DNA of 64,000 bases. Origin: Alphaproteobacteria bacterium. Its GTDB lineage: Bacteria > Pseudomonadota > Alphaproteobacteria > CAAHEQ01 > UBA3637. The stretch is from NCBI GenBank assembly GCA_017412085.1, contig JAFPYS010000019.1, positions 90,155 to 154,154 on the forward strand, written 5' to 3'. Below the pieces are notes generated by a model, which was given only the letters and a program-made list of their open reading frames with translations, was not told the DNA's origin and did not search any database. The position numbers and the translations under genes are program-made. Shown one piece after another: positions 5,264 through 60,771 of this stretch (positions within the stretch are counted from its first letter, which is position 1; each line of letters begins with the position of its first letter).

Positions 5264-7464
5264 GATATTTCTCCCAAATGGACATGATGGTCCCGCAGAT
5301 ATGAAGATAAGGCATTACGCAGGGAAGATTGCTTGCTGTTCAATTGGGACATGAGATAGTCACGGTATTTGTCTAAATTTAAGCTCCGAATGGCCGTTTT
5401 TACGGCTACAACAGATTCTGGACTCATAGATAACGTTCTGATACCCAATGCCAATAATGTTAATGCTTCTAATGGACGAGAAGCCATCTCACCACAAACA
5501 GAACATTTTACATGATAAGCATCGCATTGTTCTACAATCAGATTTAATGCTCTTAAAAAAGCAGGGCACAATGAATCGTAACGATTGTTAATTTGCGTAT
5601 TCGTCCTGTCCGCAGCGAACATAAATTGGGCCAGGTCGTTTGTCCCAATGGAAATAAAATCCACTAACGGCAACAAGTTATCCAGTTGGAAAATCAAGGC
5701 TGGCACTTCCAACATTGTGCCCACAATGATTTCTTTAGGCGTTTTTTGTTTGCGCAATATTGCATTTTTTAACTCAATTTCCAACGTCTTCTTGCTTTCA
5801 ATGAATTCTTCAACGGTTGTGATCATTGGGAACATAACCCTTAATGTACTGCCTGCTGTTGCTCGCAAAAGAGCCCGCAATTGATTTCTAAGGAGTGCGC
5901 GCCGGTCTAATGTCATGCGGATCGACCTCCACCCCATGGCTGGATTTTCTTCACCTTGTTGTTCAAAATATGGCAACACCTTATCAGAACCAATATCTAG
6001 TGTCCTGAAAATAACTGGTTTATTTTTGGCCTGAACTAAAACACGCTTGTACGCTTCGGTTTGTGTCCGAATGTCTGGTAAAGACTTTGCAGTCATGAAC
6101 AATAACTCTGTTCTATATAAACCGATACCATCGCAAGGGGGTAAATGATCCACTGCCCCAGACAGCCCCATGTTTAACATAAGCGATACATCCACTCCGT
6201 CTTTTGTTTGTGCGGGTTTGTCTTTATTTTTGGCCTGTAAACGAGCCATGCTTCTTAAGGCTTGTTGATAACTTTTTAACGTATCCAAAGTTTCATCCGA
6301 TGGGCGCAAATAAATCTTACCTTGCACAGCATCCATAGCAACTGGCGCCCCCTCTTCCAATTGGCGCACGGCTTCTTTGACCGCTCCAATCAAGGGAATT
6401 CTGTAAGCGCGAGCCACAATAACAACATGCGTTGTTTGCGAACCATCTTCCAAAACAATACCTTTAATGTGTTTTAAGTCATAATCCAATAACTCTGCTG
6501 CGCCCAAATTGTCGGCCACCAATATTTTATTGCCAATCAGCTTTTTTTTACCACTCTTAGGGATCAGGGCTTGCATTAATCTGGCAGTCAAATCTTGAAA
6601 ATCGCGTGCGCGTTCCCGTAAATATGGATCGGCGACAGCTCTCATCTTTTCCAATGTTTCATCGCCAACTTTCTGCAAAGCCGCCTGTGCGGTAAGTCCG
6701 GTCTTTATTGCAGATTCAACTTTGTTTTTCCATTCGACATCGCTTAAAAACATCAGATAGGTTTCAAACAATTCCTTTTCTTCTGCTGGCGTTGAAGGAT
6801 GAGTCAATCGACGTTGTATTAAACGTTTAACCTTCGAAAACGAAGTGTTTAGACGTTTGATTTCGCGATCCGGATGAATTGTAAGGATTGGGCCGTTAAT
6901 TTCCAACCGTCGGTGTAACAACACCTCGCCCAGCGCAAAACCTTGTATCATTCCTGTTCCCTCTAATGTCCTGGAGACAGAAAGAGACACCAAATTCTTT
7001 GTTGTTTTGCTGCTTGTTAATTCAGCCAAACACTCGGCCAATATCATGGCTACATTTTGAACCGCTTCTACGATTTCGGTGCTAAATGATTCCTTGCGCC
7101 GCGATAATAGGCCAAGCACCGCCAATACTTGATTTCCGCGTACCATAGGAACAACCAAAATGGTCTTGTTGACGCCTTTGGATGAAATAACGGCCTTGCG
7201 ATCCAAAGCGACCCGCCCAACGATTTCTTCCCCAAGTCGAACAAATGTTGGCAATTGGACGGGGCGACCAATTGCAAGGAAGTTTTCCAAAATATCGCCA
7301 GGACGCATAACGTATAAAACAGCCGATGGCATCTTAAGTTGTTCACACAATAACGTGAGAACAGTATTTAACCTTTTGGGGCCAGACATCTCTTTTGCCA
7401 TTACATCACGTAAGGCACTCATCATCGCCGTTACAGAAATAGTTGATCCCTTTGTCGGTGACAT
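5260..7464 (-). CDS. ptsP: phosphoenolpyruvate--protein phosphotransferase EI-Ntr (N-terminal GAF domain plus PEP-utilising enzyme domains)
   Basis: 734 aa. N-terminal GAF-like region, then PEP-utilising enzyme motifs (GGRTSHAAI-like segment LEDGSQTTHVVIVARAYRIP, plus the C-terminal TIM-barrel region). Confidence 0.85.
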   Translation of the reverse strand: MSPTKGSTISVTAMMSALRDVMAKEMSGPKRLNTVLTLLCEQLKMPSAVLYVMRPGDILENFLAIGRPVQLPTFVRLGEEIVGRVALDRKAVISSKGVNKTILVVPMVRGNQVLAVLGLLSRRKESFSTEIVEAVQNVAMILAECLAELTSSKTTKNLVSLSVSRTLEGTGMIQGFALGEVLLHRRLEINGPILTIHPDREIKRLNTSFSKVKRLIQRRLTHPSTPAEEKELFETYLMFLSDVEWKNKVESAIKTGLTAQAALQKVGDETLEKMRAVADPYLRERARDFQDLTARLMQALIPKSGKKKLIGNKILVADNLGAAELLDYDLKHIKGIVLEDGSQTTHVVIVARAYRIPLIGAVKEAVRQLEEGAPVAMDAVQGKIYLRPSDETLDTLKSYQQALRSMARLQAKNKDKPAQTKDGVDVSLMLNMGLSGAVDHLPPCDGIGLYRTELLFMTAKSLPDIRTQTEAYKRVLVQAKNKPVIFRTLDIGSDKVLPYFEQQGEENPAMGWRSIRMTLDRRALLRNQLRALLRATAGSTLRVMFPMITTVEEFIESKKTLEIELKNAILRKQKTPKEIIVGTMLEVPALIFQLDNLLPLVDFISIGTNDLAQFMFAADRTNTQINNRYDSLCPAFLRALNLIVEQCDAYHVKCSVCGEMASRPLEALTLLALGIRTLSMSPESVVAVKTAIRSLNLDKYRDYLMSQLNSKQSSLRNALSSYLRDHHVHLGEIS

Positions 7465-41719: not shown

Positions 41720-41794
41720 GACCCTATCATCTAACGGTTAGGATACGGCCCTCTCAAGGCCGGTACACGGGTTCAAATCCCGTTAGGGTCGCCA
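41720..41794 (+). tRNA. tRNA-Glu (anticodon CTC), CCA encoded
   Basis: GACCCTA acceptor pairing with TAGGGTC, anticodon stem-loop CGGCC-CTCTCAA-GGCCG, T-arm ACGGG-TTCAAAT-CCCGT. 75 nt. Confidence 0.85.
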
Positions 41795-41799
41795 ATTAA

Positions 41800-41828
41800 A
41801 AGGATGCCCCATTTGTGGGCATTTTTTA
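41800..41828 (+). terminator. rho-independent terminator after tRNA-Glu(CTC)
   Basis: Hairpin ATGCCC-CATTTGT-GGGCAT followed by T6. Confidence 0.6.
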
Positions 41829-41903
41829 ATTGGGAAATTTCTGACAGGAAATGAACACGTCGGGTTCGGCCAAAGGCAACGCCTTAAGGCGGTAAATCCC
41901 GTT

Positions 41904-41923
41904 AGGGTCGCCATTAAGTGCAA
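41904..41923 (+). repeat. 20-nt direct repeat of the tRNA-Glu 3' end (AAATCCCGTTAGGGTCGCCA); tRNA remnant with no 5' half
   Basis: Exact copy of tRNA-Glu(CTC) positions 56-75 lying 110 nt downstream. No complementary acceptor 5' strand upstream. Followed by its own terminator. Confidence 0.55.
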
Positions 41924-41931
41924 AACGCCTT

Positions 41932-41956
41932 TTGTGGGCGTTTTTTCTTTTATTTT
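41932..41956 (+). terminator. rho-independent terminator after the tRNA-fragment repeat (similar to the tRNA-Glu(TTC) terminator)
   Basis: AACGCC-TTTTGT-GGGCGTT followed by T6. Compare AACGCC-TTTGCT-GGGCGTT at 7672. Confidence 0.5.
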
Positions 41957-42021
41957 CAATCACTTGTGATAGTTCGTAACTCTATTTATCAAAATCGGCT
42001 ATTTTTCAGCGTTTCCAAACT

Positions 42022-42456
42022 TTACTTACCAATAGTATTACTTAGACGCGGCGTTCTGTTATGAACAAGTGCGTGTTTCTTTTGGCATTGCTCCGCAAAA
42101 GTTTTAACATACGGTGCTAGTTTGCCCGGTCCTACAGCTTCATATTTTGCTGGGTCGTATTGCAAAGGAAAACCTTTATTTAATAACTCCACTCCAATAT
42201 CAACCATTTTCAGATGAGCATTCTGGCTGGCCGTCAAAAGTCGGCTTGTTTTTTTATACAAGTAACTTTCGTCAAATAATTCTTGAGCCAACCAATAACT
42301 GCTTGCCAAAAATTGCCCAGCAACAATATCCCCACCCTCTTCCTTTTTATATTGGAAATCTGGCTTACTTACAATCCCGCGAACCGAATCCAATCGAGCA
42401 TTCAACGGACCCAATTCATTGATTAAATCACAAATTTCAAAGTACTTTTCTCGCAT
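42022..42456 (-). CDS. hypothetical protein (144 aa)
   Basis: ORF with coding-like composition. No family recognised. Confidence 0.5.
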   Translation of the reverse strand: MREKYFEICDLINELGPLNARLDSVRGIVSKPDFQYKKEEGGDIVAGQFLASSYWLAQELFDESYLYKKTSRLLTASQNAHLKMVDIGVELLNKGFPLQYDPAKYEAVGPGKLAPYVKTFAEQCQKKHALVHNRTPRLSNTIGK

Positions 42457-57623: not shown

Positions 57624-57652
57624 ATAAAAAAAACCCACACAAAATGGTGGGT
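57624..57652 (-). terminator. rho-independent terminator after the 57786..58067 gene
   Basis: Hairpin ACCCAC-CATTTTGT-GTGGGT followed by T8 on the minus strand. Confidence 0.55.
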
Positions 57653-57785
57653 AAAAAAAGTGGAACAGTAAAAAGAAGGGGGAAAATCCAAACTTGTATG
57701 CAAGGTTGAGGAGTATTACACAACAAGCCTCTTTACTGTTCCGGCGATGATTATATCATCTTTTTAATTATTTGTCAAGTATTTT

Positions 57786-58067: not shown

Positions 58068-58152
58068 TTGAAATCTCCTTTCGAACAGGAAATATTATAC
58101 CACAAACCTTTATTTTTGTCAATCTTTTCTGCATTAAGTGAACAAAAAGGGC

Positions 58153-58181
58153 TTGCATTTCATCAAAAAAAAGTGTATAAA
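58153..58181 (+). promoter_or_regulatory. sigma70-like promoter for tRNA-Pro (TTGCAT-17-TATAAA)
   Basis: TTGCAT at 58153-58158, a 17-nt spacer, then TATAAA at 58176-58181, 10 nt before the tRNA. Confidence 0.5.
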
Positions 58182-58191
58182 TATCAACGAT

Positions 58192-58268
58192 CGGAGCGTA
58201 GCGCAGCCTGGTAGCGCACTTGTCTGGGGGGCAAGTGGTCGTGGGTTCAAATCCCGCCGCTCCGACCA
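58192..58268 (+). tRNA. tRNA-Pro (anticodon GGG), CCA encoded
   Basis: CGGAGCG acceptor pairing with CGCTCCG, anticodon stem-loop CTTGT-CTGGGGG-GCAAG, T-loop TTCAAAT. 77 nt. Confidence 0.9.
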
Positions 58269-58274
58269 CTAAAC
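58261..58274 (+). repeat. direct repeat TCCGACCACTAAAC (tRNA-Pro 3' end plus 3' flank), copy 1 of 3
   Basis: Last 8 nt of tRNA-Pro plus 6 nt of trailer. Repeated at 59137-59150 and 59998-60011, each preceded by a degenerate copy of the tRNA T-arm region. Confidence 0.7.
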
Positions 58275-58276
58275 AC

Positions 58277-58306
58277 AAGTCGTCTGAAAAGGCGACTTTT
58301 TCTTTT
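58277..58306 (+). terminator. rho-independent terminator after tRNA-Pro
   Basis: Hairpin AGTCGTC-TGAAAA-GGCGACT followed by a T-run. An identical hairpin recurs at 60014-60040. Confidence 0.55.
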
Positions 58307-58525
58307 ATTTCCAAGGCGTTGTGCGAGTTCGAATGTCCAACTGTCAAAATGGACAATTTCCAGCCATTTACGAACTCTTGAAGCAAAATTTCCTTTGTTT
58401 TCAATGCCCGCCCCTCGGGAGCCTAAACCCACCATCCCAGAAAAAACTGAATTTTTTATTGCATTAAAAATAATAATTTTGTATAATATCTTGCGAGAGA
58501 TTTGAGCAATCAAAAAGGAGTTATC

Positions 58526-59092
58526 ATGAACAAAAAAGTAGTTTTTCTAACTGGAAATCCTCATAAAAAAGAAATTGCAGAAGCGGTTTTTGCATTATAC
58601 GGTTTAGAAGTTGAAGCACACGATATTGATCTTGAAGAAATACAAGAAACAGATATTGAGAAAATCGCTACATGGAGTGCTTTACAGGGGGCAAAACGAT
58701 TAAATATGCCGGTCATAAAAACAGATGTCGGTTTTTCAATAGATGCCTTAAATGGTTTCCCTGGAGCATTCGGAAAGTATGTATTTCCACAGTTGGGGGT
58801 CGAAGGCTTGCTTCGATTGATGGCGGACAAAACAAACAGGCATGCAACTTCTACTGAAGTATTAGCATTTGCTACACCTGATGGCAAAACCAAAACTTGG
58901 ACTAGGGTTCAAGATCTTGAAATATTAACAGAGCCAAAGGGTACAGGATCAGCGATTGATCAAATTATGGTTGTATCAGGAGAACACACCGTCAATTATG
59001 GGAGCATGGCCCATGAAGAAAAAATGGAGTGGTGGCGAAAAGGCCCGAATTACTTCCATGAGTTTGCAAAATGGTTTATCAGTCAAAATTGA
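58526..59092 (+). CDS. Ham1/RdgB-family non-canonical purine NTP pyrophosphatase-like protein
   Basis: KVVFLTGNPHKKEIAEAV (compare KVVLATGNVGKVRELASL), TDVGFSIDALNGFPGAFGKYVF (compare [21 protein letters not shown]), GTGSAIDQIM (compare GTGGFGYDPIF). AGGAG RBS before the ATG at 58526. Confidence 0.6.
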   Translation: MNKKVVFLTGNPHKKEIAEAVFALYGLEVEAHDIDLEEIQETDIEKIATWSALQGAKRLNMPVIKTDVGFSIDALNGFPGAFGKYVFPQLGVEGLLRLMADKTNRHATSTEVLAFATPDGKTKTWTRVQDLEILTEPKGTGSAIDQIMVVSGEHTVNYGSMAHEEKMEWWRKGPNYFHEFAKWFISQN

Positions 59093-59136
59093 TAGTATTT
59101 CGTTTTTTAAAATGGGCTCGTAAATTGCGCATTCAT

Positions 59137-59150
59137 TCCGACCACTAAAC
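59137..59150 (+). repeat. direct repeat TCCGACCACTAAAC, copy 2 (boundary between islet 1 and islet 2)
   Basis: Preceded by AAATGGGCTCGTAAATTGCGCATTCAT (degenerate tRNA-Pro T-arm) and followed by ACAA plus a hairpin, as after the genuine tRNA. Confidence 0.7.
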
Positions 59151-59388
59151 ACAAAGCATCAGAAATGGTGCTTTTTTCTTTTGTTTCCAAGCGCTTATAA
59201 GGGTTCGAATGTTGAAAGCGCAAAATCGGCCATTTTCAGCCATTTACGAACTCTTGAAGCAAGTTTTCCTTTAAAATCAATACTTGTCCTCTGGGAACCT
59301 AAAACACTAATCCCAGAAAATATACTTGCATACATCAAAAATTTATGATATATTTTCCGTCGAAAAAATTGGATAAAAGGAAATAAAC

Positions 59389-59976
59389 ATGGAAAATTTA
59401 GAAAAAGAAAAAATTCGTTCTATATTGGATAGTCCTGTTGTTTTTATTCACAAATCAACAAAAGAAGAAAAAGATTTATATCCAGATAAAAAAGTAGGAT
59501 GGTTTTATACTTTTGGTTTAGAGTCTGGTCAAATTTTTGTTTCTCATTTTCAACCGATGGAAGAGTATTCTGATACATTGGTTTCAACGTTTAAACCATT
59601 TAATGCCTTATTACCAGATTTAAAAGAAATCAATTTTAAAACCCGCTTTATGTTTAACAGGGAAAGAGATATTGAAATGTATACCCAATATCATCCAAGA
59701 GTCAGTGAAAATGAACAAAAAGTATATGATGAAATAATTGCTTCAAAATATAATGGAAATTCATACGAGTTTATCCCTTTATATCAGAAAAGTTGGCCTG
59801 TTCACTTTGAATTGGTCCGTTGTGCCGAATTAAGAAAAGAATTACTACGTCATCAGAAATTATTAAAAAAAGAACTGACTATTCAAAACAAAGAATCTCG
59901 AATTCCAGAAAGATGTTCTACTCATAATCAAACAGAAAAGATGAGTTTGCATTTGAAAGAGCCTCATGTGAAATGA
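59389..59976 (+). CDS. hypothetical protein (195 aa), cargo of islet 2
   Basis: ORF with a GGATAAAAGGAAA RBS-like region. No recognisable family. Confidence 0.5.
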   Translation: MENLEKEKIRSILDSPVVFIHKSTKEEKDLYPDKKVGWFYTFGLESGQIFVSHFQPMEEYSDTLVSTFKPFNALLPDLKEINFKTRFMFNRERDIEMYTQYHPRVSENEQKVYDEIIASKYNGNSYEFIPLYQKSWPVHFELVRCAELRKELLRHQKLLKKELTIQNKESRIPERCSTHNQTEKMSLHLKEPHVK

Positions 59977-59997
59977 GCTCGTGATTTGAGAGTTGAT

Positions 59998-60011
59998 TCC
60001 GACCACTAAAC
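59998..60011 (+). repeat. direct repeat TCCGACCACTAAAC, copy 3 (distal boundary of islet 2)
   Basis: Preceded by AAATGAGCTCGTGATTTGAGAGTTGAT and followed by the same terminator hairpin as copy 1. Confidence 0.7.
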
Positions 60012-60042
60012 TTAGAGTCGTCTGAAAAGGCGACTTTTTATT

Positions 60043-60771
60043 TTAATTTTTCTTATTATATATTGCGGCAACATCGACCAATATTTGCCGTATTTCTTTG
60101 TCCTCCTTTGGCATCTTGGCGATTACCTTTGGCAAATTCTCTTCCATTTTATCAACAGCCCCACGATCAACAGGAACTCTTTCCGGCATAAAATGCCGCA
60201 TAAAAGCCAACAATGCCGCTTTTTCGTCCGACACATCATAGCCTATTTCTTTAAGCAATGTTTTTGTGCGCTTTAAAGATTTTTGTTTAATTTGTTTCTT
60301 CGGCCATAGACCAATACCATATTTTGCCATTTCCTTCCAAGGAAAAGAAAAATTTGGATCCAGTTTGCGTGTCGGAGCAATATCGCTGTGCCCCACAACA
60401 TTTTCAGGCCGAATGTGGTGTTTTTTTATAATTTGTGTTGCCAACTTCACAAAAGCATCTAATTGAGCCTTTGGATATGGTTTTTGTCCAAAACTAGGAG
60501 TGTATAATTCAATACCAATAGAGGTTGCATTTAATCCAGAGTCACCACGCCAACAGCTTTTGCCCGCATGCCACGCTACCTTATTTTCCCCAACAAATTG
60601 GCTAATTTGACCTTTATTGTCGATCATATAATGCGGACCAACACCAAATTTATCCCATAATTTTAAACTTTTAGACACAGAAAAGGCAAAGCAATGCACA
60701 ACTAAATGGCGTATTTTTTTATGTGGATCGCGTTCCGCAAAATGTGGCCAGTTCAATTGTTTTATTTGCAT
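60043..60771 (-). CDS. ampD: AmpD-like N-acetylmuramoyl-L-alanine amidase (amidase_2/PGRP fold)
   Basis: WHAGKSCW, HSDIAPTRKLDP and IGIEL zinc-ligand motifs of 1,6-anhydro-MurNAc-L-Ala amidase. Adjacent to nagZ. Confidence 0.75.
   Translation of the reverse strand: MQIKQLNWPHFAERDPHKKIRHLVVHCFAFSVSKSLKLWDKFGVGPHYMIDNKGQISQFVGENKVAWHAGKSCWRGDSGLNATSIGIELYTPSFGQKPYPKAQLDAFVKLATQIIKKHHIRPENVVGHSDIAPTRKLDPNFSFPWKEMAKYGIGLWPKKQIKQKSLKRTKTLLKEIGYDVSDEKAALLAFMRHFMPERVPVDRGAVDKMEENLPKVIAKMPKEDKEIRQILVDVAAIYNKKN

Follow-up and report, generated by a model that had tools for sequence, protein, structure and literature searches.

The lambda-type attP, used by tyrosine integrases that target tRNA 3' ends, is a site of about 240 bp in which a short core identical to attB lies between arms that carry repeated arm-type sites and sites for accessory factors. 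In cis-mobilizable elements (CIMEs), the flanking att repeats derive from a tRNA 3' end; they contain no integrase or transfer genes, they form head-to-tail tandems, as documented for ICESt1-related elements, and they are regarded as decay products of ICEs and IMEs with irregular size (PMC5704250). Tycheposons, in turn, encode their own tyrosine or serine recombinase, often together with replication genes, and span several kb (Hackl et al., bioRxiv 10.1101/2020.12.28.424599). As for gene cassettes of the integron type, no integrons, In0 elements or CALINs were reported in 243 genomes of Alphaproteobacteria (Cury et al. 2016, PMC4889954). For the locus described here, the concept that comes closest is that of CIMEs and of tandem accretion at tRNA genes. 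The locus is an islet at 58192-60771 of the window, by which we mean the whole 64-kb stretch of alphaproteobacterial DNA that was analysed.

Between tRNA-Pro(GGG) and ampD, the islet holds two units of 876 and 861 bp (Table 1). Each is built, in this order, of CTAAAC, an intrinsic terminator, a non-coding module, a non-conserved promoter-like stretch, one gene and a conserved right end. The core, TCCGACCA followed by CTAAAC, starts at 58261, 59137 and 59998, and a hairpin with a T-run terminator follows each copy. Direct repeats of the tRNA 3' end therefore stand at both ends of each inserted unit, as they also do in L003-L014; the last 8 nt of the tRNA, TCCGACCA, are the block common to every cassette right end. 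The right ends of the window units follow the consensus G(G/A)GCTCGT(A/G)A(A/T)T..(C/G)ATTCCGACCA, and the 31-nt right end of cassette 1 is conserved in L003-L013 as well. The 195-aa cargo of cassette 2 gave no match in Pfam, PHROGs or PADLOC, and its sole homologue among 5.8 billion proteins is encoded by the same cassette in L164.

Table 1. Features of the tRNA-Pro(GGG) islet and of related elements, in window coordinates unless another contig is named.
Feature	Coordinates	Strand	Basis or remark
tRNA-Pro(GGG), proposed attachment target	58192-58268	+	ARAGORN; Rfam tRNA 61.9 bits
Core repeat copy 1 (TCCGACCA + CTAAAC), left boundary of cassette 1	58261-58274	+	Direct repeats, three-way alignment
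Intrinsic terminator hairpin and T tract, first element of cassette left arm	58277-58308	+	Terminator scan
Module copy 1	58309-58444	+	Repeat search, conservation blocks, per-column entropy, motif map
M5 motif GAGTTCGAAT, module copy 1	58325-58334		
Small hairpin, module copy 1	58335-58354		
Invariant M3 motif ATTTACGAACTC, module copy 1	58366-58377		Inverted copy of cassette right end
A/T-rich tract with invariant TCCTT and TCAAT, module copy 1	58378-58409		
Inverted repeat GGGA / TCCC, module copy 1	58417-58420 / 58435-58438		
Putative promoter of cassette 1 (TTGCAT, 17 nt, TGnTATAAT)	58459-58487	+	By eye; not called by consensus scan
Cargo of cassette 1, Ham1/ITPase-like protein, 188 aa	58526-59092	+	Pfam PF01725, E 1.6e-20
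Right end of cassette 1	59114-59144	+	R motif GGGCTCGTAAAT 59114-59125, then TGCGCATTCAT, then TCCGACCA 59137-59144 (core copy 2)
CTAAAC and terminator of junction 2, variant hairpin GCATCA/TGGTGC	59145-59184	+	Repeat search, terminator scan, alignment
Module copy 2	59185-59320	+	Repeat search, motif map
M5 motif GGGTTCGAAT, module copy 2	59201-59210		
M3 motif ATTTACGAACTC, module copy 2	59242-59253		
Inverted repeat TGGGA-N14-TCCCA, module copy 2	59292-59315		
Putative promoter of cassette 2 (TTGCAT, 17 nt, TATATT)	59326-59354	+	By eye; conserved with the cassette in L164
Cargo of cassette 2, 195-aa orphan protein	59389-59976	+	ORF
Right end of cassette 2, distal array end	59975-60011	+	R motif GAGCTCGTGATT 59975-59986; core copy 3 TCCGACCA 59998-60005, CTAAAC 60006-60011
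Displaced native terminator of the tRNA	60014-60047	+	Terminator scan
Chromosomal ampD, after the displaced terminator	60043-60771	-	
tRNA-Glu(CTC)	41720-41794		
Related islet at tRNA-Glu(CTC)	41795-42456	+	Junction HMM match, E 5.5e-08
Mini-element with T-loop insert	Window 41833-41922; L003 7648-7764, 3030-3141 (minus); L010 342-512; L031 10933-11112; L006 936-1034		

A preliminary description of this DNA had pointed out a conserved non-coding segment after each copy of the tRNA-3'-end repeat. This was borne out by a repeat search of the 64-kb window, which returned an ungapped pair, 58261-58444 and 59137-59320, of 184 nt with 76% identity. The second copy had been placed at 59183-59330 with about 65% identity; the repeat itself stands, but the placement does not. 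Segment 58303-58450 (148 nt) aligns with 59179-59326 at an offset of 876, without gaps and with 71.6% identity, whereas an offset of 880 is out of register and yields 22%. The best ungapped match of the same segment at an unrelated position in the window reaches 45%, and an exact 26-mer, CAGCCATTTACGAACTCTTGAAGCAA, is common to both copies where 0 are expected by chance. The module repeat is real and far above chance; beyond 58445, identity between the two copies falls to 28%.

The conserved unit exceeds the flagged module of about 150 nt. It is a junction of about 230 bp that comprises the right end (GRGYTCGTAAAT..CATTCCGACCA), the core shared with the tRNA 3' end, the intrinsic terminator and the module. 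Outside the window, where the preliminary description had proposed to look for further copies, a 20-mer from the module matched L003, a sheep-rumen alphaproteobacterial MAG, the other two matches being chance matches in coding DNA; a right-end probe added ten further metagenome contigs, L007 being left out as a chance match. A profile search over L003 and these ten contigs gave about 25 junction copies, in arrays of up to 4 (L008). Every junction has the orientation of the tRNA, follows a tRNA-Pro or another cassette and stands between unrelated single genes. In L003 (minus strand), cassettes lie behind both tRNA-Pro(TGG) and tRNA-Pro(GGG).

The cassettes are compact and regular, each of 0.7-1.2 kb with a single gene, and their cargo is assorted and unrelated from one cassette to the next: Ham1, a GNAT acetyltransferase, a GT-D glycosyltransferase, a MORN-repeat protein, a kinase-ASCH fusion, lipoproteins, membrane proteins and orphans. 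Among about 20 cassettes the cargo gene points forward in some 14 and is reversed in 6; in the reversed cases the module is kept, and the stop codon of the cargo abuts it. Scans of PLSDB plasmids, of INPHARED phages and, with four patterns, of viral contigs revealed no phage, plasmid or viral contig with the junction; those of the viral contigs returned 0 or chance matches, plus generic matches to the tRNA-Pro 3' end that lacked it. Likewise, when the contexts of ampD orthologues were compared, contigs of the same genome carried the identical two cassettes and no junction was seen in more distant relatives. In the syntenic relative L030 both the tRNA and ampD are present and the junction is absent. 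The sole gene between tRNA-Pro(GGG) and ampD there (L030 10790-11092) encodes a phage-type Bor lipoprotein (Lambda_Bor); the slot thus houses foreign genes in this relative too, without the junction.

The boundaries of the cassettes are sharp. At distal array ends, similarity stops directly after TTCCGACCA (three times in L003, and in L004 and L010), and across the array ends of L003-L014 it terminates at CCGACCA. The window tRNA reads GCTCCGACCA and its cassettes keep CATTCCGACCA, like the tRNAs of other species, so any exchange in this genome would be confined to TCCGACCA. Cassette 2 of the window recurs in L164 with about 95% identity and another right-hand neighbour: behind it, L164 continues with CTAAAC-ACA-terminator-module and another cassette, the window with CTAAAC-TTAG-terminator-ampD, and the homology between the two breaks at the core, right after CTAAAC. 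Mean module identity is 0.733 within arrays and 0.728 between arrays. The nearest relative of window copy 1 is L009_b (82%) and that of copy 2 is L008_a (81%), as against 72% between the two window copies. The term duplicated, used in the preliminary description, is therefore not appropriate: the copies have separate origins, and they would have arrived separately, each cassette bringing its own module, and not through local duplication.

The same three-cassette block, 97-100% identical, is present at L009 1-2524 and L014 9-2396, behind tRNA-Pro(GGG) in unrelated chromosomal contexts. Its tRNA-proximal junction (terminator and module) is only about 80% identical between the two contigs, and junctions 2 and 3 are identical. 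Junction parts, namely terminator type, hairpin type and right-end type, assort as mosaics across the family; together with the diverged first junction, this suggests additional homologous exchange between junctions. A separate observation concerns a non-coding insert of about 125 nt between the cassette core and the next terminator, found in L004 (minus; oriented 244-370 and 1400-1500) and L003 (oriented 7215-7320); the insert closes with GTCGGAATTG, in which the core/acceptor strand recurs in inverted form.

Within the module, ATTTACGAACT is identical in 20 of 20 copies, and an inverted copy of it ends every cassette. The degenerate form RGYTCGTRAWT occurs four times in 64 kb (0.54 expected), exclusively at cassette ends: twice on the minus strand, once per module (M3), and twice on the plus strand, once per right end. 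Each cassette is thus bracketed by an inverted pair. M5 (GRGTTCGAAT) is a third, shorter and degenerate copy of the motif, 35 nt upstream of M3, with which it pairs as the outer stem of the preliminary description. The inverted repeat reported there, GAGTTCG...CGAACTC in copy 1 and GGGTTCG...CGAACTC in copy 2, is indeed found in both, but the change between them is from A-U to G.U at the second pair and not from G-C to G-U. The M3/M5 motif is similar to the T-stem/loop of tRNAs (GGGTTCAAAT); the right end, taken as a whole, reads as a degenerate T-arm plus acceptor strand. Of the T-loop-like motif noted earlier, GGTTCGAAT, copy 2 has an instance (59202-59210), but copy 1 has AGTTCGAAT instead. 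Downstream of M3 come the A/T-rich tract with its invariant TCCTT and TCAAT and then TGGGA-N14-TCCCA, for which 0.05 chance matches are expected and in which GGGA and ATCCCA are nearly invariant over the 20-copy alignment; the GGGA-N14-TCCC repeat was correctly recognized in both window copies. Conversely, the two inner hairpins that had been named as counterparts occupy positions that are not homologous between the copies. Invariant 11-nt blocks in the 20 copies, with variable spacers between them, indicate site-specific constraint. The invariance of ATTTACGAACT fits sequence-specific recognition and is silent on pairing.

Taken together, the module is most likely not a structured RNA, and instead a conserved non-coding arm of small mobile cassettes. 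More specifically, at a rough probability of 0.55, we read it as a DNA site and not an RNA gene, the P'-like arm of an attP-like site belonging to integrase-less cassettes whose recombinase would be supplied in trans. The P'-arm reading draws on the junction family of about 25 copies with unrelated cargo and array ends at the core, on the change of context in L164, on the equal identity within and between arrays, and on the invariant ATTTACGAACT with its bracketing inverted pairs. It draws further on the negative RNA tests described below and on the position of the module between a covarying terminator and non-conserved promoters, irrespective of the six reversed cargos. The locus thereby has direct repeats of a tRNA 3' end, repeated binding-site-like motifs on the arms and the same unit in different contexts. 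Of the two interpretations originally put forward, an integrase arm-binding region from attP is consequently the one that fits. The module is the long arm of the junction that brackets every cassette, with two copies of a 10-12-nt cassette-end motif, a fixed orientation to the tRNA and unrelated cargo.

In the mechanism we propose, the cassette would circularize by joining its right end to its left arm, and the circle junction would hold an 8-12-nt core (CATTCCGACCA, equal to the tRNA-Pro(GGG) 3' end) between the short arm and the module. Strand exchange within TCCGACCA would be carried out by a recombinase whose gene lies elsewhere, most likely a tyrosine integrase. Its partner site would be the tRNA or else the right end of a cassette already in place, so that head-to-tail arrays build up. 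Accessory sites would come from the module, namely the inverted M5 and M3 copies of the T-loop-like motif, the A/T-rich tract and TGGGA-N14-TCCCA.

Several observations count against this scheme. Neither a circular form nor an empty site was seen, and the helper was not found in viral contigs, phages or plasmids. The L009/L014 comparison, with a tRNA-proximal junction at about 80% in a block of 97-100%, speaks against an exchange limited to the core; the spacing of about 11 nt between the R motif and the core exceeds that of classical core-type sites; and the plus-strand folding and G.T bias discussed below also weigh against it. Tyrosine recombinases were sought in the 64-kb window with a motif regex and with lambda Int, XerD and Cre as phmmer queries, and no match was obtained. 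The motif regex, used there as the only method, likewise gave nothing beside the arrays in L003 or L009, and no called ORF within the arrays examined is large enough for an integrase.

The alternative that survives best, doubtful as it is, retains the same function and lets the site act as a folded single strand in the manner of an integron attC. Within the top strand, GCTTATAAGAGTTCGAAT would pair imperfectly with ATT-TA-CGAACTCTTGAAGC to give a hairpin, the TA being extrahelical and the terminal structure variable. The integron-like layout, with arrays of single-gene cassettes of assorted function, agrees with this, as does the S1 hairpin with its 2-nt bulge in 17 of 17 canonical copies. Mismatches on the plus strand are biased towards G.T over A.C (12:1 in S1, 20:1 in S2 and 18:1 in the terminator), and the mean fold z is -1.49 on the plus strand and -0.58 on the minus strand; the bias and the better folding of the plus strand hint at a single-stranded top-strand form. 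However, the S1 and S2 bias stems from about three variable columns, and the stem arms are invariant in sequence and not conserved in structure. In addition, no IntI-like gene was found, the cassettes have their own promoters, and the RYYYAAC/GTTRRRY pair is present in 0 of 20 junctions on either strand. A genuine integron attC was rejected on that last count, the R''/R' core sites RYYYAAC...GTTRRRY having been sought at 40-150 nt from each other. Two further types of DNA site were set aside by inspection only: ends of the IS200/IS605 or Tn7 type, the right end having no subterminal hairpin and no TGT..ACA termini, and a dif/Xer site, for which the right-end TGCGCAT resembles a XerC arm, but a XerD-like arm and a dyad are lacking.

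A little less probable again is a role as a transcription-control region, in which a regulator of the host or of the element would switch the cassette promoter off or on by binding TGGGA-N14-TCCCA and the A/T tract. The rarity of that inverted repeat by chance and the near-invariance of GGGA and ATCCCA would be in keeping with a regulator site, and in forward cassettes the 3' end of the module lies some 8-40 nt upstream of the -35 element. That distance is variable, however, and shows no helical phasing; moreover, the module is kept with the six reversed cargos, where it abuts the 3' end of the gene, and the inverted pair of M3 and right end around each cassette would be left unexplained.

A structured non-coding or cis-regulatory RNA transcribed from the plus strand, the other interpretation of the preliminary description, is improbable. 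Single-sequence folds of the plus strand reach z -1.9 and -2.7 for the window copies and z < -2 in 11 of 17 canonical copies, and the excess of G.U-type mismatches points to the same strand. Against this, the RNA tests were negative. With Rfam 15, only tRNAs passed the gathering score in the window, and at E <= 10 over 58100-60100 no match covered either module body, edge matches being far below gathering. RNAalifold on the 20-copy alignment retained three helices, the terminator, GAGTTC/GAACTC and GGGA/TCCC; the covariation term amounted to just -0.82 kcal/mol, and the terminator accounts for almost all of this. The terminator stem does covary over the 20 copies (GTCGTC/GGCGAC versus GCATCA/TGGTGC), but it lies outside the module, directly upstream. 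In a pair-count test of covariation, 0 of 500 shuffles reached the score obtained with the terminator included; for the module stems alone, the score was 0.159 against a shuffle mean of 0.159, a value reached by 271 of 500 shuffles. The claim that substitutions preserve structure accordingly fails in the 20-copy alignment. A conserved promoter upstream of the module is also absent, the stretch between terminator and module reading TTATAAG or TTGTGCG depending on the copy, and the cassettes have non-conserved promoters of their own behind it, with the module present whichever way the cargo points.

Per-column entropy showed no conserved ORF, without codon periodicity and with no frame open in all copies. 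A small ORF or micropeptide was rejected in particular: a minus-strand frame (..ASRVRKWL..) is alike in the window copies and has stops in most others, with a periodicity of 0.66/0.73/0.68. An IS110-style bridge RNA was also rejected: a permuted core can be read into the S4 loop (CTAAAAC-CACCA), but CACCA varies freely among cassettes at one shared target, and no transcription unit is present. Finally, it is very improbable that the module is inert repeated DNA, left behind by decayed islands at a tRNA hotspot and homogenized by gene conversion between neighbours. The mosaic junction parts and the differing first junction of L009 and L014 would be compatible with this, but copies from one array resemble each other no more than do copies from different genomes, the opposite of local homogenization; the invariant 11-nt blocks amid variable spacers bespeak site-specific constraint; and the cassettes are uniformly compact single-gene units and not decay products of a large island.

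Other elements near tRNA genes were encountered in the course of the analysis. In the islet at tRNA-Glu(CTC), two terminators flank a copy (41862-41913) of the T-arm/acceptor 3' strand of the tRNA, whose T loop is interrupted by 26 additional nt; they are followed by half a module, the 5' one (41949-42021), and by a 144-aa gene on the minus strand (42022-42456). It is partly decayed and belongs to the same family as the tRNA-Pro cassettes. The homologue of the 144-aa gene is cassette-borne in L012 and an ordinary gene of an aroK-corC operon in the relatives L155-L163, which suggests that cassettes capture chromosomal genes.

A recurrent non-coding mini-element of about 110-190 nt adjoins tRNA genes in this and other genomes; it combines a terminator and a spacer with a copy of the 3' part of the local tRNA. 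Its T loop (GGTTCG/AAAT) is split at the stroke by a conserved hairpin-rich insert, TTCGGCCGAAGC..GGCAACGCCGNNGGCGG..GCCGAAT. The mini-element is present in cassette-free relatives as well, and once inside a module, at TTCG/AAT of M5; a search of Rfam with the T-loop-insert element gave no match. Upstream of the tRNA, on the minus strand of the window at 57625-57777, lies a candidate small RNA gene with a long imperfect hairpin. Over the 83 nt at 57661-57743 it matches L030 with 100% identity, against only 54% between the AmpD proteins of the two genomes; TTGACA-17-TATAAT precedes it, and the terminator that follows shows compensatory changes between the two genomes. This candidate, too, matched no Rfam family.

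Should the cassettes be mobile, they would constitute a compact and regular format for gene shuffling, in which promoter, gene and terminator travel with a 230-bp site. Their hosts belong to uncultured lineages of Alphaproteobacteria from rumen and gut, a class reported to be free of integrons (PMC4889954). The invariant ATTTACGAACT together with the right end TCGTAAATTGCGCATYCATTCCGACCA offers a signature for mining cassette pools, and a recombinase that reads a T-loop-like motif poses a defined problem. For annotation, the locus is a caution that, in a comparison of just two copies, conserved inverted repeats adjacent to tRNA genes can pass for covarying RNA stems. We also entertain, as a possibility we would bet against, that behind the visible arrays stands a dedicated cassette-capture system, functionally analogous to integrons, in a clade of host-associated Alphaproteobacteria. 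Such a system would be anchored at tRNA-Pro and tRNA-Glu, would use a T-loop-mimicking site of about 230 bp, perhaps as a top-strand hairpin, with a putative recombinase, and would be able to capture chromosomal genes.

Compared with the systems described so far, the cassettes resemble CIMEs in being att-flanked and tandem; they hold one cargo gene only, and any mobility would need a recombinase in trans. They differ in being uniform single-gene units of about 0.8 kb, in having a strongly conserved site of about 230 bp and their own promoter and terminator, and in recurring across genomes. No ICE or IME remnant, pseudo-integrase, relaxase or parent ICE was seen in any array, and the regular cassette format would tend to argue against ICE/IME decay. 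Tycheposons share the integration at tRNA genes, the succession of elements parted only by a partial tRNA copy and the flexible niche-gene cargo, whereas the cassettes here have neither recombinase nor replication genes. As in integrons, and CALINs in particular, the cassettes are compact and mostly single-gene, carry an imperfect-palindrome site and have no adjacent integrase. In contrast to integron cassettes, which are promoterless, in one orientation and expressed from Pc, they have -35 and -10 elements of their own and hold cargo in either orientation (6 of about 20 reversed); their site is without RYYYAAC/GTTRRRY and is conserved in sequence rather than in structure, and it is a tRNA 3' end, not an attI next to intI, that anchors the array. 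The likeness to a lambda-type attP lies in a junction of about 230 bp, an 8-12-nt block equal to the tRNA 3' end, repeated 10-12-nt motifs on opposed arms and an A/T tract, but no integrase or excisionase is linked to the cassettes, and the repeated motif is T-loop-like, its copies being putative binding sites. The best reading of the cassettes is thus as a variation on known att-flanked elements, with an integron-like layout.
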